A stretch of DNA of 64,000 bases, from the NCBI GenBank assembly GCA_043798995.1, contig JAZDOD010000009.1, forward strand, positions 14,015 to 78,014, in the 5' to 3' direction. Source of the DNA: a bacterium. GTDB lineage: Bacteria; Patescibacteriota; Patescibacteriia; JAACEG01; JAGUWE01. Below, in pieces: positions 1,015 through 56,147 of this stretch. A model generated the notes under the pieces. That model had not been told where the DNA came from and made no database searches. It was given only the letters and a program-made list of their open reading frames with translations. Each line of letters starts with the position of its first letter. The first letter of the stretch is position 1. Position numbers and translations under genes: made by a program.

Positions 1015-1425
1015 ATGAAAAAAATACTTTGGACAATTATTATATTAACGGAAGCTATTTATTTTATTCTTTATATTCCACTTTCTTTAGATACAAATAT
1101 GTGGCTACCCGAAGAAAGATATAATACTATTTTTAGTCTTTTCATACTACTTCCGTTATTAAATTTTTTACCTTTTGGAATTTTATTGATCATAGCTAAA
1201 AAATTTTTAAAAGAAAGTTCTTCGAGAAAATATCATCAGCGAAAGATGGGTATAATTGGTGCAGGAATCACCGGGTTTATTATAAATCTATTTATAAATA
1301 TCAGTGTTGCTAATAGTAATTCTTCAACAGCAGCCATAGCCTTATTTCTTCTTCCGTTTTATACACTTGCAATAATGCCGATTGGATATTTTATCGGAAG
1401 CACTATTGCTAAAAATAGAAAGTAA
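1015..1425 (+). CDS. small polytopic membrane protein, hypothetical
   Basis: 136-aa ORF that is highly hydrophobic with several predicted TM segments. I recognise no family. Confidence 0.4.
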   Translation: MKKILWTIIILTEAIYFILYIPLSLDTNMWLPEERYNTIFSLFILLPLLNFLPFGILLIIAKKFLKESSSRKYHQRKMGIIGAGITGFIINLFINISVANSNSSTAAIALFLLPFYTLAIMPIGYFIGSTIAKNRK

Positions 1426-1524: not shown

Positions 1525-1600
1525 ATTATCCTGAGTGATAGCGAAGAATCTCTTTTGAGGATTTTAATTATAGATTCTTTACTGCGTTCAGAATGACGAA
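1525..1600. repeat. degenerate sibling copy of the palindromic element found in-frame at 1797-1904
   Basis: Shares the motifs gagtgatagcgaag, ctttact and aatgacga with the 1797-1904 element. Lies just downstream of the ligase-like gene stop at 1623. Confidence 0.35.
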
Positions 1601-1622
1601 AAAACAAAGATTAAATTAATTC

Positions 1623-3122
1623 TTATTCTTCAGCATTCTTTAATACCAACGCCAAAATCAACCAAAAAAGAAGCACCCCAAAATGGTTACTCCAAAGCCA
1701 GTGGTCAAAGAACATCATTGCCAGAAAAGCGATTAAAATGGATAGATATGGTAAGGTTGAAAAATTTAGTCCCAGGTTGTAAGGCGTACGCCCTTTGTCA
1801 TTGCGAGGAGTGATAGCGACGAAGCAATGTCGTAGAAATTGGCTTAATGAGCGGGATTGCCACGCCCCACCCTTTACTCGGAAAGGGCGGGGCTCGCAAT
1901 GACGATTCTGGTCTGTCAAAATAAAGAATATAGAATAAAGAATTAAGAATAAAAAGATAATCAGGCCCACAATGCCCAATTCCGACCAAATAAGTAAATA
2001 AACATTATGCACCGGCTGGTAAAATCTGGCCGGAAAATTTTTATTAACTTCTTGATAAACCGCCAAAGTGTAATTGCTCATACCAACGCCGGCCCAGAAG
2101 TGTTTTTCTCTTAAATTTTGGGATTGTTTTTGATAAGTGGCTCTTTCCGCCAATGATTGCTGTTCTAATTTTTGCTTGCCCTGAAAGCGGCTTAAAAACG
2201 GCTCTTGGTAAATCGAAAACAAGCTGGCAAAAATCAGTGCGCTTATAAGAGCTAATTTTAAAAGACAAAACAGATTGGTTTTGTCTTTTTGTTTTAGAAA
2301 GTAAAGTAAAAACAAAAAACCGGTCAAAGCCAATCCTAACCAGCCGTTTCTTGAAAAAGAAAAAATCAATCCGATGAGAATAATGACATAGAAAATTAAA
2401 CCAATCAAAATTCGCCCGCCAATTTTTTTAAAAATTTTTTCTTGGTTATCTTCGAAAATTTTTTCTAACTTTTTATAAAGGGAAAGATAATAGCCGATTG
2501 CCAAGACCGCAGCTGCCATTAAAAAACCGCCCAAGATATTGGGATGCGGCAGTCCGCCATAAGCGCGCAGCCACCTTCTTTCATCGGTTTGAACCACCGA
2601 GGTGCCGGCTTGGCTCATATCATGATAACCTAAGCCCAGCCATTTAAATGAAAAAGTTTGCTGGGTGATAAATTGCCAAGAAGCCAAAAGAGCTTGGATC
2701 ACGCCGCCTAAAATAAAACTTAGCGCCAAATAATTAAAATTAAGATTAAGATTTAAAACCAGCCAAAACAAAGCTATGGCCTCAGCAATTTTGACCGTCC
2801 AATAAAGCGCCAATAATTTATCAGCTGCCCAAAAAGAAGACGAAGCAGTCCAGAGAATAAAAAGAACACTCAAAAGAAAAAGTGGCAATCTTTTTTTATT
2901 TAACTTTCCTTTGGGCAGTTGGCGATTTAAAAAAGCTAAAACAAGCCAAAGAATAAAAATTAAAACTAAAAGCAAATCAACCGCGTATAAATTAATTTTA
3001 CCGTATTCCCAAACTTGGTTATTCAGTTTCGGTTCGCGCAAAATCAAAGTTGTCTGCCAGGGCAGAAGAAAAACAAAAAGATAAAAAAGATACTCAATTA
3101 ATTTTTCAAGGTTTTTTTTCAT
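1623..3122 (-). CDS. O-antigen ligase/polymerase-like (Wzy_C family) polytopic membrane protein, carrying an in-frame repeat insertion
   Basis: 499 aa with >10 TM helices and an SRNGWLGLAL motif typical of the Wzy_C/O-antigen ligase domain. A hydrophilic segment (QNRHCEPRPFRVKGGAWQSRSLSQFLRHCFVAITPRNDKGRTPY) is out of character and is encoded by the palindromic element at 1797-1904. Confidence 0.6.
   Translation of the reverse strand: MKKNLEKLIEYLFYLFVFLLPWQTTLILREPKLNNQVWEYGKINLYAVDLLLVLIFILWLVLAFLNRQLPKGKLNKKRLPLFLLSVLFILWTASSSFWAADKLLALYWTVKIAEAIALFWLVLNLNLNFNYLALSFILGGVIQALLASWQFITQQTFSFKWLGLGYHDMSQAGTSVVQTDERRWLRAYGGLPHPNILGGFLMAAAVLAIGYYLSLYKKLEKIFEDNQEKIFKKIGGRILIGLIFYVIILIGLIFSFSRNGWLGLALTGFLFLLYFLKQKDKTNLFCLLKLALISALIFASLFSIYQEPFLSRFQGKQKLEQQSLAERATYQKQSQNLREKHFWAGVGMSNYTLAVYQEVNKNFPARFYQPVHNVYLLIWSELGIVGLIIFLFLILYSIFFILTDQNRHCEPRPFRVKGGAWQSRSLSQFLRHCFVAITPRNDKGRTPYNLGLNFSTLPYLSILIAFLAMMFFDHWLWSNHFGVLLFWLILALVLKNAEE
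1797..1904. repeat. small palindromic (MITE/RPE-like) element inserted in-frame in a coding sequence
   Basis: Terminal inverted repeats of 11 bp, gtcattgcgag (1797-1807) and ctcgcaatgac (1893-1903). Internal near-palindrome ccccaccctttactcggaaagggcgggg. Local GC is far above the genome background. The host gene reading frame is maintained through it. Confidence 0.5.
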
Positions 3123-3137
3123 AAATTAATTAAAGTT

Positions 3138-3272
3138 GCTCGGAAAGTAGTTTTTAGAAGACGTTCGCTCGCCCGGCGTGCTCGCTCACTCAGGTCCTCG
3201 GCTCGCTCTTCCGCCTTTGGCGGAAACCATGCCCGCTCGCCTGTGGATGCTTCTAAAAATTACTTTCCTCGC
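3138..3272. mobile_element. MITE-like element with ~23-bp terminal inverted repeats
   Basis: Left end gctcggaaagtagtttttagaag (3138-3160) versus right end cttctaaaaattactttcctcgc (3250-3272) gives 20/23 as inverted repeats. The core is GC-rich with repeated gctcgc motifs. It is intergenic between two minus-strand genes. Confidence 0.45.
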
Positions 3273-3282
3273 TTTTTAATTG

Positions 3283-5294: not shown

Positions 5295-5398
5295 CCCCTC
5301 CTTTTTAAAAGGAGGGTTAGGGAGGATTTTAAAAATCTCCCTCAATCCCTCTTTTACAAAGAGGGAGGAGAAAATTCTCCTTTAACAAAGGGGATTTT
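5295..5398. repeat. cluster of tandem hairpins, copy R1 of the CCCTCCTTTTAAAAGGAGGG-TTAGGGNGGATTTT family
   Basis: Contains cccctcctttttaaaaggaggg, ttagggaggattttaaaaatctccc and tccctcttttacaaagaggga. Related copies occur at 11019, 11843, 45804 and 49278. Confidence 0.5.
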
Positions 5399-5433
5399 CA
5401 GAGAGTATTTTTAGTATAGCAAATGAGTTGCTC

Positions 5434-10299: not shown

Positions 10300-10375
10300 T
10301 GAAAATAAAAATTCGGACTATCCGAATAATTTGTATTCTAATTCTATTATAAACTTTAGAGCAACCTTTTGTCAA

Positions 10376-10437
10376 CCCCCACACCTAATAAGCGCATTTA
10401 AATTATTGACTTTTTCAGTGCTTATTAGGTGTGGGGG
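10376..10437. repeat. large hairpin with 20-bp near-perfect stem
   Basis: cccccacacctaataagcgc (10376-10395) pairs with gtgcttattaggtgtggggg (10418-10437) at 19/20, around a 22-nt loop. A gtcaaccccc direct repeat flanks both sides. Confidence 0.5.
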
Positions 10438-10980
10438 TCAACCCCCGTAGCAAATCCCAACGAGGATTTTTCTAAAGGTGGTCTATATAATTTTTCCAAC
10501 TAAAAGAGGCGCAACTAGCGCCCCTTAATATACAAAACAATGTTATTTATTGGGCTGTTGCGCCTCAGGCCATTGAAACCACTTGGACCCGCCGGTGGCA
10601 GGCAATCAAGACCTTATTTCAAAGACCGGATAGCGCAATTCCGACTTTATGCGCGTTCTTCTACCACCTAGTGGTAAGATCTCTATCCTAAGGATAAAAA
10701 TTTACCGTTTTTCACCTTTTGTAGGTGTTTTTTGTTTTTGTTTATGGTGGTTTAGGTCGGTTCTAAGCCAAATGAGGTAGTAAAAGAAACAGAAATTAAG
10801 CCAAAAATCGCTTTTTGCTTCATTTCTCTATGTAAAAGGGCTTTTTATCTATACTAATTTAATTATACCAGCTTTTAGCCCCTCTGTCAATTCAGTTATT
10901 AACAGGATTTAAAGCTAAAATTTATTCCCATGTCTTAAAATTAAAGGAAAGGATGTGGGAAAATAAGTGTTTATTAAAGG

Positions 10981-13746: not shown

Positions 13747-13834
13747 AAAGTATTAAATTAATTTTTAATTTTTAAATAAATTTCAATTTTTAATGTCAAA
13801 TTAATAAATATTTGCCTTGCACTAAATTTATTTG

Positions 13835-13916
13835 TGCCGATGGTGGGAGTTGAACCCACAAGCCTTGCGGCATACGGCTCTGAACCGTACGTGTTTGCCA
13901 ATTTCACCACATCGGC
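13835..13916 (-). tRNA. tRNA-Leu (anticodon CAG), class II with long variable arm
   Basis: Folded by hand from the reverse complement. Acceptor GCCGATG/CATCGGC plus discriminator A. Anticodon loop UUCAGAG. Variable stem-loop GCC-GCAA-GGC. T arm GTGGG-TTCAACT-CCCAC. Confidence 0.8.
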
Positions 13917-14018
13917 GCGGGCCAGGTCTACCAGGCCTGCCCCGTACCTTTCCGCCAGCCGGCGGATCTGGTGCGGGGTTCCACCACTCGCCCAAAATTA
14001 AAAACAAGAAAAAAGTTG
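13917..14018 (-). other. GC-rich (~60%) structured spacer between the two tRNA-Leu genes, possible small ncRNA or processing element
   Basis: Three hairpins can be drawn: UGGUG-N8-CACCA, CCGCC-GGCU-GGCGG, and a GGCC-rich stem. The GC content stands out from background, as for structured RNAs in low-GC genomes. No family assigned. Confidence 0.2.
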
Positions 14019-14103
14019 TGCCGGGGACAGGATTTGAACCTGCACAGAGTTGCCCCCACTGCCACCTCAAGGCAGCGTGTCTACCAGATTCCACCACCCC
14101 GGC
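14019..14103 (-). tRNA. tRNA-Leu (anticodon GAG), class II with long variable arm
   Basis: Acceptor GCCGGGG/CCCCGGC plus A. Anticodon stem-loop CTGCC-TTGAGGT-GGCAG. Long variable arm. T arm GCAGG-TTCAAAT-CCTGT. Confidence 0.8.
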
Positions 14104-44130: not shown

Positions 44131-44382
44131 TTTCATTCAAAAATAAAAATATTTAGTAAACGCTCATCCAAATGCGCTTTCGCTAAAGCTCCAGCGCTCC
44201 AGGTGTTATACAAAAAAGTTCAACCAAAAAAGACGGAAAATATAGCCGTCTTTTTAAAATGTCATCCTGATCCGCCAGTCGGCGGATTCAGGATTTCTTA
44301 ATTAATATATCAAAATGTCGAGATAAGTTCGTCCCAAAGAGATTCTGAAACAAGTTCAGAATGACAAATTAATTATTTAAAC

Positions 44383-44447: not shown

Positions 44448-44663
44448 ATGCGTGAAATAATCAATATTTCCCTGCCTTCTCCGCTGGTCAAAACCGTTAA
44501 AAAAGCGGTTAAAGAAGGCGATTATATGAGTGTTAGCGAATTTTTTCGTGATTTACTGCGGGACTGGCAGAAAGGTAAATTATTAAGCGAGCTCAACGAA
44601 AGCCGCGAAGAAATTAGATCCGGCAAGGGCAAAACCTTAAAATCCTTAAAGGATTTAAGATAG
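44448..44663 (+). CDS. ribbon-helix-helix (ParD/CopG-like) antitoxin
   Basis: 71 aa. INISLPSPLVKTVKKAVKEGDYMSVSEFFRDLLRDWQ has a beta-alpha-alpha pattern. It lies 8 nt upstream of a RelE/ParE-family toxin gene. Confidence 0.6.
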   Translation: MREIINISLPSPLVKTVKKAVKEGDYMSVSEFFRDLLRDWQKGKLLSELNESREEIRSGKGKTLKSLKDLR

Positions 44664-44671
44664 TTTTCTGT

Positions 44672-44932
44672 ATGAATATTGTTTATAGCTCAAAATTTGC
44701 GCGTGAATACAGAAAATTACCTAACAATATAAAAACCATTGCCGAGCAACAAGAAAAAATATTTCGCAAAAATCCTTTTGACCAAAAACTAAAAACTCAC
44801 AAACTAAAAGGCAGGTTGAAAGGATTTTTATCTTTTTCTATTGGTTATCAGTACCGAATAATTTTTGAATTCGGAAAAGATAAAAAAACCGTCTATTTTC
44901 ATTTTGTTGGTAACCATGGTATTTATCAATAA
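44672..44932 (+). CDS. RelE/ParE-family toxin (type II TA)
   Basis: 86 aa. KTHKLKGRLKGFLSFSIGYQYRIIFEF...KKTVYFHFVGNHGIY matches the RelE/ParE/YafQ pattern (KL.G....E.RIG.YR.I..I..D..V.I..IGHR..IY). Confidence 0.7.
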   Translation: MNIVYSSKFAREYRKLPNNIKTIAEQQEKIFRKNPFDQKLKTHKLKGRLKGFLSFSIGYQYRIIFEFGKDKKTVYFHFVGNHGIYQ

Positions 44933-45227
44933 CAAATCAATAACCACATTAAGTATAACCAAAAAAGACGGATTACATTTTCCGTCTTTTTTGATGTCAC
45001 CCTGAACTTGTTTCAGGGTCTCTTTTAGGACTTCCATAGATGCTGAAATAAATTCAGCATGACAGATAAAAAATTGTTCGAGATTGCTACTCCGCCAGAG
45101 GCGGATCGCAATGACATTTTAGTTTAAGTTTTAAAATTAGTTCATTAAAAATTATTTAAAAATTGTCCACCGGAGGCGGATCCGCCTTGGGCGGAAAAAT
45201 TTAAAATTTAAAATTAAAAATTTTAAA

Positions 45228-45791
45228 TTACACTCTCTCCACATACAACCCCGTATCGGTATTAACGCGGAGAATGTCTCCTTCTTTGACAAAAAGCGGG
45301 GCGTTAACAATAAGGCCGGTTTCTAAAGTGACTTGTTTGGTAGCGCTGCCTTGGGCAGTATCCCCGCGCACGGCTGGCGGAGAAGAAATAACCTTGTAAT
45401 CAATTTTTTTTGGTAGTTCAATATTTACCGGCTGGTTATTAAAATACAAAACTATAACTTCTATGCCTTCTTTTAAAAATTTAACCCGTTCATTTAATTG
45501 TTCGGCGCTGAAATTAAACTGCTCAAAAGTTTCGTTATCCATAAAAAAATAACCTTGAGCGTCTTGATAAAGAAAATTAGCTTTGTGTTTTTCTAAGTCG
45601 GCTTCCTCAACTTTATCGCCCGGCTTGAAATTAATTTCCAAGACCTTGCCGCTTAAGAGATTTTTCAGTTTTGTCTGCATCACCGGTTTTCTTTGCTGGC
45701 AACGCATAAAATGAGCCTCTACCACTTGGTAGGGCTCATTGTTTATTTTTAAACATAATCCTTGCTTGATGTCGTTAAGCGAAGAAATCAT
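45228..45791 (-). CDS. efp: elongation factor P
   Basis: 187 aa starting MISSLNDIKQGLCLK. KOW-like N-terminus and two OB domains. The start is trimmed from the longer track ORF, whose extension translates repeat R4. Confidence 0.85.
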   Translation of the reverse strand: MISSLNDIKQGLCLKINNEPYQVVEAHFMRCQQRKPVMQTKLKNLLSGKVLEINFKPGDKVEEADLEKHKANFLYQDAQGYFFMDNETFEQFNFSAEQLNERVKFLKEGIEVIVLYFNNQPVNIELPKKIDYKVISSPPAVRGDTAQGSATKQVTLETGLIVNAPLFVKEGDILRVNTDTGLYVERV

Positions 45792-45803
45792 ATGGTTCGT
45801 TTT

Positions 45804-45840
45804 CCCCTCCTTTGAAAAAGGAGGGTTAGGGGGATTTTTA
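45804..45840. repeat. palindromic hairpin element, copy R4
   Basis: cccctcctttgaaaaaggagggttagggggatttt. It fills the efp-rpsR intergenic space. Confidence 0.5.
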
Positions 45841-46071
45841 CTATCTTTTAAGAAAGGGTATAAGCGCCATAATGCGGGCGCGTTTAATGGCTTCGGCCAT
45901 TTTTCTTTGATGTTTGGCGCAGAGGCCGCTTTTTCGCCGCGGTCTGATTTTGGCATAAGAAGACAAAAATCGTCGCAATATTTGCGCATCTTTGTAATCA
46001 ACTCTTTGTTCAGCATTAAGGCAAAAATAACAATTTTTTCTTTGTCTGATTATAGTATTTTTTTTAAGCAT
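45841..46071 (-). CDS. rpsR: 30S ribosomal protein S18
   Basis: 76 aa. YFCLNAEQRVDYKDAQILRRFLSSYAKIRPRRKSGLCAKHQRKMAEAIKRAR matches the S18 pattern. Confidence 0.9.
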   Translation of the reverse strand: MLKKNTIIRQRKNCYFCLNAEQRVDYKDAQILRRFLSSYAKIRPRRKSGLCAKHQRKMAEAIKRARIMALIPFLKR

Positions 46072-49212: not shown

Positions 49213-49277
49213 CTTTCACGAGGCGCGTAAGTCAAAAAAGACCCAAACGCCTCTCTTTTTTAACTTCAATATATTTT

Positions 49278-49348
49278 CCCCCTTTGTAAAAGGGGGATTA
49301 AGGGGGATTTATAAATCCACCCCAACCCTCCTTTATTAAAGGAGGGGG
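49278..49348. repeat. palindromic hairpin cluster, copy R5
   Basis: ccccctttgtaaaaggggg + gggggatttataaatccacccc + ccctcctttattaaaggaggggg. Confidence 0.5.
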
Positions 49349-49407
49349 AAAACAGATCGAATTACAAATATTTTAAAATAGTTTAAAAATTTAGTATAAT
49401 TAAACTA

Positions 49408-52016: not shown

Positions 52017-52132
52017 AATTTTAGGGTGGACCCCGTAAGAAGTCAGCCCAACGCTACTTTAATAGAAACTGAGAATTTAAAAATCAATAGGGCACTTTTT
52101 ATATAAAGATACATTTGTCTGACTTCTTACGG

Positions 52133-52533
52133 GGTGGAGATGAGGGGAGTTGCACCCCTGTCTAAAGATTCTCGTTTAAAAACTTCTACAAATTTAGTCC
52201 TATTTTTTTCTCGGCTTAAAATAAAAAATAAGACAAAAACTTTTAAGCCAGAGTCTTATTTGTGGTTCGATAAATTAGCAAAGACCGCTCTAATTTATCT
52301 AGTCTAATAATTATGACACCGAAACTACCTATTAGACATCAGTAGCCCCAGTGGGCCGTTTCAATTAAGCAACAGCCATTGCCAAAGAAGGAGTGGCAAT
52401 TGCTTGCGCAATCGCAGTCCTTACTTTGTTAACAAGTGTTTTTGCACTTATAATTTGTCAGCGGTTTAAAGAGCAACTAACAGCTCCATTTGCCGTTTTT
52501 AAAAAGAACCTCTGGCGAAGCTTAGGCATCCCC
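52133..52533 (-). ncRNA. ssrA: tmRNA (SsrA) candidate, directly downstream of smpB
   Basis: 5' end GGGGAUGCCUAAGCUUCGCCAGAGG resembles the tmRNA start GGGGcUGauUcuGgaUUCGaCgGG. 3' end AGGGG-UGCAACU-CCCCU-CAUCUCC-A-CC gives a T-arm plus acceptor strand pairing with the 5' GGGGAUG (one G-U). An in-frame tag-like ORF ends ...SLAMAVA-UAA. A 16-bp perfect inverted repeat (52029-52044 / 52120-52135) lies immediately 3'. Confidence 0.6.
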
Positions 52534-53063: not shown

Positions 53064-53191
53064 TTGACAAAGAGATTAATTCTTGATAAATTTACCCCGT
53101 AACCTCCTCTAAAAAGATTTATCAATTTATCAAGAGATAGTTTTTATCAATTTTGTTTTACCTTCTTTAGTAGATAGAGGAGGTTACGGGG
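53064..53191 (+). promoter_or_regulatory. ileS leader: promoter TTGACA-17-TAAATT followed by a perfect 17-bp-stem hairpin
   Basis: -35 at 53064-53069. Stem arms ccccgtaacctcctcta (53095-53111) and tagaggaggttacgggg (53175-53191). A nested TTGATAAATT/AATTTATCAA inverted repeat sits in the loop. ATG at 53214. Confidence 0.4.
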
Positions 53192-53213
53192 TTTAAGCTA
53201 TAAAAATTATTTT

Positions 53214-56147
53214 ATGTCCGAGAAATCTAAATTTGCCCAGAAGGAAGAAGAGATACTTGCTTTCTGGGAGCAAAACAAAATTTTTGAAAAAACGCTAACC
53301 AAAAAATCGCCCAAGGGTGATTATGTTTTTTATGATGGCCCGCCGTTTGCCACCGGCCTGCCCCATTACGGCCATATCGTGGCCTCTTTAATGAAAGATG
53401 CGATACCGCGTTTTCGGACAATGCAGGGCTATCACGTTGAACGTCGCTGGGGCTGGGATTGTCATGGCCTGCCGGTTGAAAATTTAGCCGAGAAAGAATT
53501 AAACCTTAAAACTAAAAAAGAAATTGAAGCGCGCGGTATTGATAAATTTAATGCTTATTGCCACAGTATTGTGCTTCGTTACGCTAAAGAGTGGCAGGGC
53601 ATAGTCAAACGTTTAGCCCGCTGGGTTGATATGGAGCGCGACTACAAAACTATGGAACCGAATTATATGGAATCAATCTGGTGGGTTTTCAAAAGTTTAT
53701 TTGACAAAGGTTTGATTTATGAAGATTACCGCGTCACGCCTTATTGCCCGCGTTGCGGCACCCCGCTTTCCAATTTTGAGCTTAATCAGCCCGGCGCTTA
53801 TCGCGAAGTTTCCGACCAATCAGTTTATGTGAAATTTCCCGTCAAAGGACAGGGCAACACCTATTTTTTAGTTTGGACCACCACGCCGTGGACATTACCC
53901 GCTAATACTGCTTTAGCTATTGGCAAAGATATCGATTATGTTTTAATAAAACTCAATCCGCCAGCCGGCAGACAAAACTCAAAACTGATTCTTGCTAAAA
54001 AAAGATTAGAAGTAATAAAAGATGAATACGAAATCATTAAGACAATCAAAGGCAAAGATTTGGTTGGTTTAGAATACGAACCTTTATATCCGATGAAATT
54101 AGATAAAACTGGCTACAAAGTTGTAGCCGCGGATTTTGTTTCAACCGAAGATGGCACTGGCATTGTTCATATTGCCCCGGCTTTTGGCGAAGACGATATG
54201 AATTTAGGCAAAGCCGAGAATTTGCCAACGGTTATTACCGTTGATTTGGAAGGAAAGGTGATTAAAAATTTGGGCATTCCCGGCGAGGGTGAATTTGTCA
54301 AAATTGCCGACGAAGATATTAAGACAAATTTTAAAAATCGTGATTTATTATTTAAAGAAGAAAAAATTGTTCACAGTTATCCTTTTTGCTGGCGTTGCGA
54401 ATCGCCACTTCTGTATTATCCGATTCATAGCTGGTATGTAGCGGTGACGAAAATTAAAGACAAGGTTGTTGCCAACAATCAGAAAATCAATTGGGTGCCG
54501 GCTCACTTAAAAGAAGGGCGTTTTGGCAAATGGCTTTCGGAAATTCGCGACTGGGCGATTTCGCGCAATCGTTTTTGGGGCTCTCCAATTCCAATTTGGA
54601 GATGCCAAACTGGTAAAAATCAAAAATCCCCGCCAGAGGCGGGTCCGCCTTTGGAGGAAAAAGTCAAAAGTCAAAAGTCCTGCGTTAACATTAAAGTTAT
54701 TGGTTCAATTCGGGAATTAGAAGAATTAAGCGGGCAAAAAATTAATGATTTACATAAACATATTATTGATAAAATTATTTTTAAGTGTAAAAAATGCGGC
54801 GGGGAAATGAAAAGAGTGCCCGAAGTGCTTGATTGCTGGTTTGAATCCGGTTCTATGCCTTATGCCCAGTTTCATTATCCTTTCGCTAATAAAGAAAAAT
54901 TCTTAAACAATTTTCCGGCCCAGTTTATTGCCGAAGGCATTGACCAGACCCGCGGCTGGTTTTATACCCTCTTGGTTTTATCATCGGCCTTATTTAATAA
55001 GCCCGCGGCTAAAAATATTCTAGTCAATGGCATTGTTTTGTCTGAAGACGGCCAAAAGATGAGTAAATCCAAAGGTAATTTTCCTGACCCGCAACTCGTT
55101 TTTGATAAATACGGAGTTGATGCTTTGCGCTACTACCTTTTTTCTTCGCCGGTAATGGCGGCTGAAAATCTTAATTTTTCAGAAAAAGGCGTGGATGAAG
55201 CTTTAAAAAAAGTGGTAATACTTTTAGGCAATGTTTTGAATTTTTATTTGCTTTACGCGCCGAAAGAAAAGGCCCCAACTATAAAAGATAAAAAATCAAA
55301 CAATATTTTAGATCGCTGGATTTTAGCGCGGCTCAACCAATTAATCAGCGAAGAGACTCAGGCCTTAGAAAGTTATGATTTGCCGCGAGCTTGCCGGCCC
55401 CTAGCAGAATTCATCAATGATTTATCAACTTGGTATTTAAGAAGAAGCCGGGCTCGTTTTAAAGATGAAACCACTAAAAAAGAAGCTATTAATACCCTAA
55501 GATATACATTAAATATATTAAGTAAACTTTTAACTCCTTTTCTGCCTTTTATGGCCGAGGAAGTTTTTCAAACTGTCACCGGATATAATTTTAAAGCTTG
55601 CAGTAAATCAGTTCATTTGGCAGATTGGCCTAAGACGGAAAAAGCAGATCAAAAAATTATTGCAGAGATGGAGCCGGCCAAAAAAATTGTTGAGCAAGCT
55701 TTGTCAGCCAGAGCCAGGGCCGGAATTAAAATCCGCCAGCCGCTTAATTTTTATTCAACCGATTTGGTGAAAAAATTGTCCAAAGAAATTATTGAAATTA
55801 TCAAAGAAGAATTAAACATTAAGGAATTGCGTTTCGGCAAAGAAGAATTGGATATTAAAATTGATGATAAATTAAAAGAAGAAGGTTTGGTTCGCGATTT
55901 AACGCGCCTCATTAACAATTTAAGAAAAGAAGCCGGCCTCACCATTAATAACAGAGTCATAATTTATTTTGAATCGACTGATGAGCTGCTTAAAAAAATT
56001 ATTGCTAATAATAAAAAAGAACTTCTTGAAAATACTTTAAGCCAGGATTTTAAAGAAGAAAAAATTAATGAACAATCGTTTTATTTACTGGAAGCAAAAA
56101 TAGACGGGCAGGTTATTAAGTTAGGAATAAAAAGACAGTGGGATTAA
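53214..56147 (+). CDS. ileS: isoleucine--tRNA ligase, with an in-frame repeat-derived insertion in the zinc knuckle
   Basis: HIGH motif PHYGHIVAS. KMSKS. CP1 editing domain. Zn-binding Cys pairs. The extra segment TGKNQKSPPEAGPPLEEKVKSQKS between WRCQ and C is encoded by the 54605-54682 element. Confidence 0.92.
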   Translation: MSEKSKFAQKEEEILAFWEQNKIFEKTLTKKSPKGDYVFYDGPPFATGLPHYGHIVASLMKDAIPRFRTMQGYHVERRWGWDCHGLPVENLAEKELNLKTKKEIEARGIDKFNAYCHSIVLRYAKEWQGIVKRLARWVDMERDYKTMEPNYMESIWWVFKSLFDKGLIYEDYRVTPYCPRCGTPLSNFELNQPGAYREVSDQSVYVKFPVKGQGNTYFLVWTTTPWTLPANTALAIGKDIDYVLIKLNPPAGRQNSKLILAKKRLEVIKDEYEIIKTIKGKDLVGLEYEPLYPMKLDKTGYKVVAADFVSTEDGTGIVHIAPAFGEDDMNLGKAENLPTVITVDLEGKVIKNLGIPGEGEFVKIADEDIKTNFKNRDLLFKEEKIVHSYPFCWRCESPLLYYPIHSWYVAVTKIKDKVVANNQKINWVPAHLKEGRFGKWLSEIRDWAISRNRFWGSPIPIWRCQTGKNQKSPPEAGPPLEEKVKSQKSCVNIKVIGSIRELEELSGQKINDLHKHIIDKIIFKCKKCGGEMKRVPEVLDCWFESGSMPYAQFHYPFANKEKFLNNFPAQFIAEGIDQTRGWFYTLLVLSSALFNKPAAKNILVNGIVLSEDGQKMSKSKGNFPDPQLVFDKYGVDALRYYLFSSPVMAAENLNFSEKGVDEALKKVVILLGNVLNFYLLYAPKEKAPTIKDKKSNNILDRWILARLNQLISEETQALESYDLPRACRPLAEFINDLSTWYLRRSRARFKDETTKKEAINTLRYTLNILSKLLTPFLPFMAEEVFQTVTGYNFKACSKSVHLADWPKTEKADQKIIAEMEPAKKIVEQALSARARAGIKIRQPLNFYSTDLVKKLSKEIIEIIKEELNIKELRFGKEELDIKIDDKLKEEGLVRDLTRLINNLRKEAGLTINNRVIIYFESTDELLKKIIANNKKELLENTLSQDFKEEKINEQSFYLLEAKIDGQVIKLGIKRQWD
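54605..54682. repeat. GC-rich palindromic element embedded in-frame in ileS (paralog of the intergenic copy at 45165-45198)
   Basis: ccgccagaggcgggtccgcctttggagg flanked by aaaaatcaaaaat and gtcaaaagtcaaaag, versus intergenic ccaccggaggcggatccgccttgggcgg at 45168-45195. Related ccgccagaggcgg at 45099-45111. Confidence 0.45.

Follow-up and report, generated by a model that had tools for sequence, protein, structure and literature searches.

What does a GC-rich palindrome do inside the coding sequence of a membrane protein of an ultra-small bacterium, and by what route can it have come to be there? The question is raised by a 64,000-nt stretch of patescibacterial DNA (contig JAZDOD010000009.1 of assembly GCA_043798995.1), hereafter called the window, which has an overall GC content of 37.7% and in which the open reading frame (ORF) of a 499-residue protein of the O-antigen-ligase family (1623-3122, minus strand) contains a compact structured element, here called E1 (1796-1904). 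Two other structured segments lie on either side of this gene, namely E0, just past its stop codon, and E2, in the space that precedes it. The interpretation set out below, to which we assign a probability of roughly 0.78, is that E1 is a head-to-head dimer of CGTC-tagged repetitive extragenic palindromic (REP) units tolerated in frame in a loop of this WaaL/Wzy_C-type gene product.

Architecture of E1

The terminal arms of E1, GTCATTGCGAG (1797-1807) and CTCGCAATGAC (1893-1903), are 11 nt long and 100% complementary, and a 12-pair hairpin is present inside the element (1865-1892); perfect inverted repeats and an internal hairpin had been described for 1797-1904 in an earlier note made from the sequence alone, and on both counts the description holds. 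With at most one mismatch the arm 11-mer occurs three times in the window against an expectation of 0.47, a number reached by none of 100 shuffled sequences; the region constitutes a GC island (55-63%) and, as single-stranded DNA, E1 is predicted to fold with a free energy of -24.2 kcal/mol (z = -2.7 with respect to shuffles).

When both strands are read, each 11-bp arm is seen to be the beginning of a self-contained unit. Unit B (1796-1831, plus strand) consists of TGTC, ATTGC, GAG GAGTGATAGCGAC GAA, GCAAT and GTC, while unit A (1853-1904, minus strand) consists of CGTC, ATTGC GAG, a nested 28-nt hairpin (1865-1892), CGTG GCAAT and CCC, the two being separated by a spacer of 21 nt (1832-1852). 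The two tags, TGTC at 1796-1799 on the plus strand and CGTC at 1904-1901 on the minus strand, both face outward. The stems start with AT and have five contiguous pairs (ATTGC/GCAAT) followed by an internal loop, GAG/GAA in unit B and GAG/CGTG in unit A; 19 nt lie between the stem arms of unit B (a 13-nt core flanked by GAG and GAA) and 35 nt between those of unit A, nested hairpin included. The 3-nt tails are CCC in unit A, GTC in unit B and CTC or CTA in sibling units of the window.

This organization recalls that of the CGTC-tagged REPs defined by Di Nocera, De Gregorio and Rocco (2013, BMC Genomics 14:522; PMC3733652), in which an unpaired terminal CGTC tag, often TGTC and with CCTC as a variant, is followed by an 8-9 bp stem starting with A-T pairs, a loop of 4-5 nt (longer in some species) and a 3-nt tail with the consensus CCA. 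These repeats are mostly head-to-head dimers, with spacers of 20-100 bp in most cases, lie mainly just 3′ of genes, some copies in several species being intragenic and in frame, and are found in five host phyla without a dedicated or linked transposase (PMC3733652). E1 has in common with them the C/TGTC tag, the A-T start of the stem, the 3-nt tail, the head-to-head arrangement and a spacer falling within the 20-100 bp range; on the other hand, its tails, like those of its siblings, are CCC, GTC or CTC instead of CCA, and Patescibacteria are outside the five listed host phyla. Judged from its architecture, E1 appears to be a variant-stem, head-to-head heterodimer of the CGTC-REP superfamily having a layout similar to that of REPINs (REP doublets forming hairpins).

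A filled site and its empty counterparts

The gene that hosts E1 matches Pfam family PF04932 (Wzy_C) with E = 3e-21 over residues 244-391 and has 316 homologues belonging, by annotation, mainly to Patescibacteria/Parcubacteria. A profile built from the ligase alignment found no match among the sequences of the Protein Data Bank, so that a fold search was needed to establish the link with WaaL: the AlphaFold model of the 499-residue protein (predicted template modelling score 0.84) has the O-antigen ligase WaaL (7TPG, E = 1.2e-6) as its sole significant match among the solved structures. The four closest orthologues (P0001-P0004, 59-72% amino acid identity by BLASTP) were compared at the DNA level through their loci, designated L001, L174, L002/L003 and L175; L001 displays 90-92% nucleotide identity with the window across the locus and L002 about 86%, and a syntenic contig with 86% nucleotide identity is present in the metagenome-assembled genome (MAG) "Patescibacteria group bacterium DeMMO5_21".

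None of 14 aligned homologues, the four closest included, has anything corresponding to the segment NRHCEPRPFRVKGGAWQSRSLSQFLRHCFVAITPRNDKGRTPYNLGL, and the DNA alignment reveals an empty site at the position of E1 in both L001 and L002. Between the anchors VHNVYLLIWSELG and MMFFDHW the protein of the window has 85 residues as compared with 40-41 in L001, L174 and L175 and 48 in L002. Relative to L001, its nearest orthologue, the extra DNA spans 1767-1901 (minus strand), i.e., 135 bp or 45 codons encoding HCEPRPFRVKGGAWQSRSLSQFLRHCFVAITPRNDKGRTPYNLGL. The hydrophilic in-frame insertion reported in the earlier note is thus real, its size being 44-45 codons and not about 36. The insertion is made of the 108-110 bp dimer plus some 30 further bases (1767-1796), within which lies a perfect 10-bp palindrome, GGCGTACGCC (1783-1792), found once in the window, a frequency not above chance (at least one occurrence in 40 of 100 shuffles), and never in the related loci. 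Comparison of the filled site with the empty site of L001 makes no target duplication visible, and the Arg codon CGT (1904-1902), with which the CGTC tag begins, is found there even without the insertion. Only one of the six frames through the insert is free of stop codons, and this is the frame actually read.

As to the consequences for the protein, only residues 406-426 and 428-452, which lie between membrane helices predicted with confidence at 374-407 and 457-469, have a predicted local distance difference test score under 50. Residues 406-452 (NRHCE...NLGL, corresponding to the 45 inserted residues and the two preceding ones) contain nine Lys and Arg, two Asp and Glu, and have a mean hydropathy of -0.83; the short loop interrupted by the insert is also basic in the orthologues (QKTYR, KKVKN, NQKK). 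The 45-residue insert is thus probably a basic, disordered loop, as the model predicts, and the expectation that the segment would prove to be a loop insertion is borne out by the orthologues. The loop bearing the conserved His372 is located on the outer side in WaaL (7TPG). Judged from this location and from the order of the helices, the inserted segment would be located in a short, basic cytoplasmic loop and not in a surface-exposed part of the protein.

Relatives of the E1 units

The two halves of E1 have quite different distributions. Unit A is found alone at other loci of the relatives, namely at 1623-1671 of L001 (90% identity), upstream of the ligase gene and in the opposite orientation, and at 1687-1735 of L002 (86%), between the LysM/M23 and RmuC genes; these copies display compensatory changes in the stem (C-G to A-T and A·C to G-C). 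Strict and loose hairpin patterns of unit A gave a single match among 185,579 species genomes, in the MAG mentioned above, and zero matches in a metagenome collection, the window's own genome being in neither of these collections. The exact sub-type of E1 thus appears, from these sequence searches, to be rare, very low in copy number and nearly private to the clade.

Unit B, instead, has 85-94% identity over 32-42 nt with dozens of copies in IMG/VR and in metagenome loci, and its terminal 12-mer, CGTCATTGCGAG, recurs without change on Novosphingobium plasmids and many environmental contigs. The motif GTCATTGCGAG-N70-100-CTCGCAATGAC was found in 58 IMG/VR stretches on contigs of 38-72% GC, compared with a roughly estimated chance expectation of about 0.2, and the single-unit pattern in at least 120. 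The consensus dimer matches plasmids of Novosphingobium, Methylosinus, Methylocystis, Methylobacterium and the cyanobacterium Aulosira, occupying at least 40 places on one Novosphingobium replicon. Dimers of the type CGTCATTGCGAG…CTCGCAATGACG are found in plasmid pNL2 of N. aromaticivorans, one copy of which, CGTCATTGCGAGCGTCGCGAAGCAATCCAG…CTGGATTGC…CTCGCAATGACG, has the same termini as unit B of E1 and the same interrupted stem; the ATTGCGAG-type relatives in IMG/VR and pNL2 end with the tail CCA(G). CGTC repeats have been reported in the genus Novosphingobium (PMC3733652); in the identity of its termini, as in its in-frame intragenic position and in the location of E0 just 3′ of a gene, the locus agrees with the published superfamily.

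Related units are therefore to be found at other loci of L001 and L002, in IMG/VR and on plasmids, and the supposition that the element has other copies is correct. On the other hand, when the window was searched by blastn-short with E1, E0 and E2 no further full copies emerged, Rfam yielded nothing on any of the three elements between positions 1400 and 3400 at E <= 1 and only the transfer-messenger RNA (tmRNA) and two tRNA-Leu genes in the whole window at the gathering threshold, a literature search with the literal sequences of the elements returned only primers for the polymerase chain reaction, and a search for Patescibacteria or Candidate Phyla Radiation (CPR) together with palindromic elements, REP or miniature inverted-repeat transposable elements (MITEs) returned nothing relevant.

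These distributions also bear on the trivial explanation that the hydrophilic segment belongs natively to the loop in this lineage, or results from a chimeric assembly, its palindromy being incidental. The length of this region does vary among the orthologues, that of L002 having 7-8 additional residues, yet a native loop would hardly end with perfect 11-bp inverted repeats bearing C/TGTC tags identical to those of elements in unrelated bacteria, nor would it be a GC island half of which (in terms of E1) recurs at other loci in independently assembled relatives. We find this explanation barely credible.

Canonical units in the same window

Other units of the superfamily are located at 44.26-45.12 kb, and all of them have a TGTC tag. 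They were scored with a covariance model, R1, built from 80 metagenome units. A head-to-head dimer at 44257-44369 combines a left unit containing a nested hairpin, TCCGCCAGTCGGCGGA (44257-44299; 21.3 bits, E = 0.0014), with a canonical right unit, TGTC ATTCTGAA CTTGT TTCAGAAT CTC (44337-44369; 52.3 bits, E = 2e-12). A cluster at 44992-45119 comprises a second head-to-head dimer, formed by 44992-45024 on the plus strand and 45035-45067 on the minus strand, and a nested-hairpin unit of the ATTGCGA type at 45078-45119 (minus strand), with scores of 39.5, 46.9 and 12.2 bits. The spacers measure 47 nt in the former dimer (44261-44365) and 10 nt in the latter (44992-45067), and stems of 8 perfect pairs with loops of 5 nt are found in the units at 44342-44365 and 45040-45063; the canonical form of the published repeats is therefore represented among the siblings of E1. 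Altogether, about nine units are present at four loci of the 64-kb window.

In metagenomes the pattern TGTCATNCTGAANNNNNTTCAGNATCT is found in at least 120 stretches with a median GC content of 0.40. A set of 143 canonical metagenome units has the 5-nt loop, and the free position of the stem is Watson-Crick paired in 141 of these 143. In the window's genome the tagged units and the hairpin modules CCGCC-loop-GGCGG and CCTCC-loop-GGAGG are found nested in or adjacent to one another, an organization reminiscent of the bacterial interspersed mosaic elements (BIMEs) and of the mosaics made in Neisseria by dRS3 and the Neisseria intergenic mosaic elements (NIMEs), where small hairpin modules are likewise combined in varying order; the sequences of the modules are, however, different and the genome in which they are found here is AT-rich and probably very small (64 kb of it having been seen).

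Beside these units, the two REP dimers have between them a cassette (44448-44932) of two genes encoding 71 and 86 residues which, from their translations, resemble an antitoxin/RelE-ParE-type toxin pair. A comparable observation is that in L001 an extra gene for 141 residues (1176-1601) is located between outward-facing REP units.

E0, an older dimer past the stop codon

The segment that the earlier note had considered a degenerate sibling of E1 (1525-1600) is better delimited at 1521-1598. The strings shared by the two elements include a 16-mer identical at 15 of its 16 positions, and the relationship is that of a decayed dimer belonging to a sister sub-type (…ATTCTGAGCGAAGCGAAGAAT…). Sequence statistics alone are weak, since the local score of 30 between E0 and E1 is reached by 0.25% of shuffles, and a covariance model of the canonical unit gives E0 12 bits (E = 0.65). 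The assignment stems from the architecture and from the existence of an orthologous copy. The minus-strand (right) unit, CGTC ATTCT GAACGCAGTAAA GAAT CTA, has its tag at 1598-1595 and a stem, ATTCT/AGAAT, that is the counterpart of ATTGC/GCAAT in E1; it is separated by an 18-nt spacer from a plus-strand unit which has kept the loop GAGTGATAGCGAAGAAT while its tag has decayed to CACC. The canonical form of the sub-type, TGTCATTCTGAGCGAAGCGAAGAATCTAT, is present in another locus, L288. An orthologue of E0 with 87% identity occupies the same place in L001 (3196-3289), and because of this orthologous copy E0 must be older than the split between the window and L001.

E0 follows the ligase stop codon at a distance of 24 bp, flanked by convergent genes, and appears, from its remains, to be an older, decaying REP dimer in the position that is usual for REPs, just 3′ of convergent genes. 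E1, by comparison of filled and empty sites, would have been inserted after the lineage of the window split from its closest sampled relative, and would be younger than E0.

With regard to the neighborhood of E0, a gene for a 136-residue membrane protein (1015-1425, plus strand) and E0 stand between the ligase gene and a gene of the major facilitator superfamily (MFS) in both the window and L001. In L002 (compare L002 5392) both are absent and the ligase and MFS genes overlap; in L174 a truncated MFS gene is followed by an IS3-type transposase pair (HTH_Tnp_1 and rve).

The place of E0 is one of the reasons to consider whether such segments could be kept as useful structured nucleic-acid signals, i.e., as mRNA hairpins that stabilize or attenuate the transcript or as protein-binding DNA sites. 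REPs are in general placed where they are transcribed and have been proposed to be RNA elements (PMC3733652), the stems of the hairpins are preserved by compensatory changes, and a position 24 bp beyond a stop codon, between convergent genes, would suit such a role. The segment inside the ligase gene is nevertheless lacking in four close orthologues, and the covariation is explained equally well by the requirements of mobility; retention of E1 for its usefulness as a signal is accordingly held to be improbable, although less so than an origin as a transposase-dependent element, considered below.

Known palindromic elements and the route of insertion

Three classes of small elements offer themselves for comparison. 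The Rickettsia palindromic elements (RPEs), reportedly described by Ogata and coworkers in 2000, are like E1 in being palindromic repeats found in frame in genes of a reduced genome, to which they add loop-like peptide segments. Unlike E1, RPE-1 is longer (about 100-150 bp) and belongs to an unrelated family, and both host and copy number differ. The analogy with Rickettsia drawn in the earlier note proves nonetheless to be well founded, for R. conorii RPE-6 and RPE-4 are CGTC-1 and CGTC-4 repeats, respectively, just as dRS3 of Neisseria is CGTC-1 (PMC3733652), and their CGTC-tag architecture is that seen in E1, the link being made through the published statement (PMC3733652).

The second class comprises the Correia repeat enclosed elements (CREE) of Neisseria and, more generally, the MITEs defined by terminal inverted repeats and target-site duplications. 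Correia elements are characterized by 26-bp inverted repeats and a TA duplication. E1 resembles this class in that it measures about 100-150 bp, has terminal inverted repeats and is located in or beside genes; it differs in having neither 26-bp repeats nor a TA duplication and in that its arms are independent hairpin units. One could nevertheless envisage E1 as a classical MITE, a deletion derivative of an insertion sequence with a DDE transposase, moved by cut-and-paste through its 11-bp ends in a Correia-like manner. Perfect terminal repeats, a size of about 108 bp and presence/absence polymorphism among relatives are what such an element would display. Against it stand the lack of a flanking direct target duplication and the fact that each arm is a complete tagged hairpin unit also found singly or in other combinations; furthermore, in 2.2 Mb of related loci the genes between unit pairs are ordinary and not transposases, the published superfamily is without an associated transposase (PMC3733652), and a sub-type present in one species genome and unmatched in the metagenome collection is not one with many near-identical copies. 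This origin is regarded as highly improbable. Since there is no target duplication and since its inverted repeats are two REP units, E1 is neither Correia-like nor a classical MITE, and the Correia comparison made in the earlier note has to be abandoned.

The third class, that of the GTAG REPs and REPINs, is said to be mobilized by RAYT tyrosine transposases, a notion attributed to Nunvar (2010) and to Bertels and Rainey (2011). Here the similarities with E1 concern the two inverted units forming a larger hairpin, the unpaired tag beside the stem, the absence of target duplication and the presumed folding of single-stranded DNA; the differences concern the tag, which is CGTC/TGTC and not GTAG, and the CGTC REPs having no linked RAYT (PMC3733652).

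By analogy with GTAG REPs/REPINs and with IS200/IS605 elements, the units of E1 would form hairpins in single-stranded DNA, and a trans-acting enzyme would cut them out and paste them in beside the tag without duplicating the target. Tag-adjacent, one-strand insertion of the IS200/IS605 type is pointed to by the absence of a duplication together with the pre-existing CGT, by polymorphism at about 10% divergence and by imperfections limited to G·T pairs. Concerning the latter, the single non-Watson-Crick pairs in canonical stems were G·T on the tag strand in nine cases and A·C in one (p = 0.02, n = 10), and all three copies of unit A likewise have G·T on the tag strand; an unconstrained count of G·T versus A·C, swamped by random hairpins, showed no bias, and the G·T excess therefore only weakly suggests that one strand does the folding. 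That the units travel as single-strand hairpins, beside the tag, as RAYT-REPIN or IS200/IS605 systems do, is what we infer by analogy. The mobility actually observed covers a time over which sequences have diverged by about 10%. In 296 loci (2.2 Mb), the segments enclosed by outward-facing unit pairs at distances of 300-3000 bp contained no transposase but only ordinary genes such as those for YchF, RecF and UMP kinase, in agreement with the published lack of a dedicated enzyme in the superfamily (PMC3733652).

The persistence of E1 could then have been a matter of chance, depending on three conditions: an inserted length of 135 bp which, with the approximately 30-bp companion, is a multiple of three; a frame free of stops; and a short basic loop between two transmembrane helices as the receiving site. 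An insertion into the part of the WaaL/Wzy_C-type gene that encodes a short loop, having taken place after the split from the closest sampled relative, would have produced a 45-residue basic loop and left the fold intact, as predicted by the model.

Several points weigh against the view that E1 is a CGTC-REP dimer captured in this way. Its units fail the strict sizes of stem and loop, with a 5-bp outer stem, an internal loop and, further in, a nested hairpin or a long loop; the dimer leaves some 30 bp of the inserted DNA (1767-1796) unaccounted for, and the poor conservation of the loop region makes the borders of the insertion accurate only to a few bases. Furthermore, the cytoplasmic placement of the loop is based on charge and helix order, the near-private character of unit A speaks against a family that is now expanding in this lineage, and no mobilizing enzyme was found in the 64-kb window, where tblastn gave no match at E < 1 to either TnpA of IS200 or the RAYT of E. 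coli, a weak negative.

E2, a separate structured insertion

A third segment, E2 (3138-3272, minus strand), separates the ligase gene from the gene for a 314-residue protein. The earlier note had called it a MITE with 23-bp terminal repeats; that it is a separate insertion is correct, while its arms (3142-3160 and 3250-3268) are 19 nt long and 95% complementary (one mismatch), an extension to 23 nt adding two mismatches. With mismatches, imperfect inverted ends extend to about 33 nt (approximately 3126-3279). E2 reaches a GC content of 63-70% and folds with z = -3.0 as DNA and z = -4.6 as minus-strand RNA. At its center (3211-3223) lies the hairpin CCGCCTTTGGCGG, a module found six times in the window against 0.01 expected and also nested in the REP units at 44272 and 45092. 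E2 is present at the same site in L002 with 95.6% identity, as compared with 85-91% for the flanking genes, and is absent from L174 and L175, with only 6 and 10 bp, respectively, between the two genes, and from L001, which has instead the extra 141-residue gene bracketed by REP units. The six differences between the E2 copies of the window and of L002 comprise two at a position mismatched in both, two C-to-U changes that keep G-U pairs in the fold of the sense-strand RNA and two in weakly paired positions. E2 is a real, separate structured insertion containing a recurrent GC-rich hairpin module.

Whether it is a MITE is another matter, the label being unproven because only one locus is known. 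Inverted ends of 19-23 nt, extending to about 33 nt with mismatches, and insertion relative to L174 and L175, which have only 6-10 bp between the genes, with TAA on either side, would suit a true MITE of an unsampled family, whose inverted ends would be long and AT-rich and whose target duplication would be TA/TAA. The TAA found on both sides is, however, not distinguishable from the AT-rich context, and the single locus is common to the window and L002, no second one having turned up in IMG/VR, elsewhere in the window or in related loci totalling 2.2 Mb; the one IMG/VR match to the inverted-repeat motif lies inside a coding region and is clearly due to chance. Moreover, an identity of 95.6%, above that of the flanking genes, with differences that are unpaired or keep G-U pairs, is accommodated at least equally well by a structured intercistronic RNA. 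A MITE is thus possible but the less favored option, and a mosaic of hairpin modules that is specific to this locus and forms an RNA structure between the two cistrons would account for the data at least as well.

In-frame palindromes beyond E1

Is the ligase gene a preferred target? Another of its loops carries, in P0001 (L001 2375-2470) and in P0002 (L174), a 31-residue in-frame insert, ISPFEKGGFPPNVDPPLAERGIYKSTPNPPF, built of CCCCC-loop-GGGGG, CCGCC-loop-GGCGG and CCTCC-loop-GGAGG hairpins, an untagged family also found in intergenic positions of the window (49270-49350 and 5295-5400). Furthermore, in P0009 (L171 1733-1800, Candidatus Parcubacteria) a decayed CGTC-type unit, GTCTTTGCGAGGAGCG…GACGAAGCAATCC…TCGCAATAAA, is read in frame near the N-terminus and encodes …ARSANERSERDATKQSH…. 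Genes of this ligase family thus appear, from their sequences, to carry three independent palindromic inserts in different lineages.

The phenomenon extends, on the other hand, to other genes. The isoleucyl-tRNA synthetase (IleRS) of the window (ORF 53178-56144, plus strand) has about 20 extra residues, NQKSPPEAGPPLEEKVKSQK, encoded at 54618-54677 by two GC-rich hairpins, CCCCGCCAGAGGCGGG and TCCGCCTTTGGAGGA; they lie within a Cys-X2-Cys knuckle and have no counterpart in T. thermophilus IleRS (1ILE), so that this segment is probably a second in-frame palindromic insertion in the window. Among the 143 canonical metagenome units eight are deep inside long open frames, and genes confirmed by Pfam that contain internal units (in loci L187, L244, L257 and L282) encode TsaD, a MiaB-like radical-SAM enzyme, a solute-binding protein and an NAD-epimerase. 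The peptides CHPELVSGS, from the tag strand, and QILKQVQND, from the complementary strand, recur as products of the repeats and can serve as signatures by which such segments are recognized in proteins. Since in-frame copies are also found in unrelated housekeeping genes, the ligase gene is not a special target; these repeats are tolerated in the loops of many proteins, in line with what has been published on the superfamily (PMC3733652). The idea of an active small-element family remodeling surface-polysaccharide genes, with which the earlier note concluded, thus goes further than the data, the sub-type being very low in copy number, the loop probably cytoplasmic and similar copies being found in housekeeping genes; adaptive remodeling of surface structures is not demonstrated by E1.

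The ORF at 45228-46016 (minus strand) was considered as another in-frame case and rejected, the module being upstream of the likely true start of elongation factor P (EF-P) at 45791. What is found there (45800-45835) is a CCTCC-loop-GGAGG hairpin together with a GGGGGATT module, just upstream of the probable EF-P start on the minus strand; the ORF reads through it and acquires a falsely extended N-terminus, …PNPPFSKEG…, an annotation trap.

Other inverted repeats of the window

Additional structured segments were encountered in the window. Two long inverted repeats (52030-52135 and 53094-53192) have a common end, ACCCCGTAA… (81% over 32 nt; 100% over 18 nt), the first of them abutting the 3′ end of the tmRNA gene (52132-52533, minus strand). 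A CCGCCAGCCGGCGG hairpin module (13917-14017) fills the space between the two tRNA-Leu genes (13834-13916 and 14018-14103, minus strand), and an inverted repeat with perfect 19-nt arms, ACCCCCACACCTAATAAGC / GCTTATTAGGTGTGGGGGT, 26 nt apart (10375-10438), is found at the end of a 140-codon open frame.

Meaning of the finding

The CGTC-REP superfamily itself and the existence of in-frame intragenic copies were already known (PMC3733652); new are the phylum of the host, the nested hairpins of the variant units and the repeated, independent decoration of one ligase-family gene.

The genomes of Patescibacteria typically have about a thousand genes. If CGTC REPs were still mobile in these bacteria through an enzyme that has never been identified, which we consider doubtful, a comparison of REP presence and absence with gene content in such small genomes could pinpoint the mobilizing protein.

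For those who annotate CPR genomes, GC-rich islands, odd hydrophilic inserts and short spurious ORFs (RHCE…/…PRND, CHPELVSGS/QILKQVQND) may be derived from such repeats and should not be taken for functional domains. The interpretation of E1 favored here would extend to Patescibacteria the superfamily that includes some Rickettsia RPEs and Neisseria dRS3, and would imply that the proteins of ultra-small bacteria, too, gather loops encoded by repeats.

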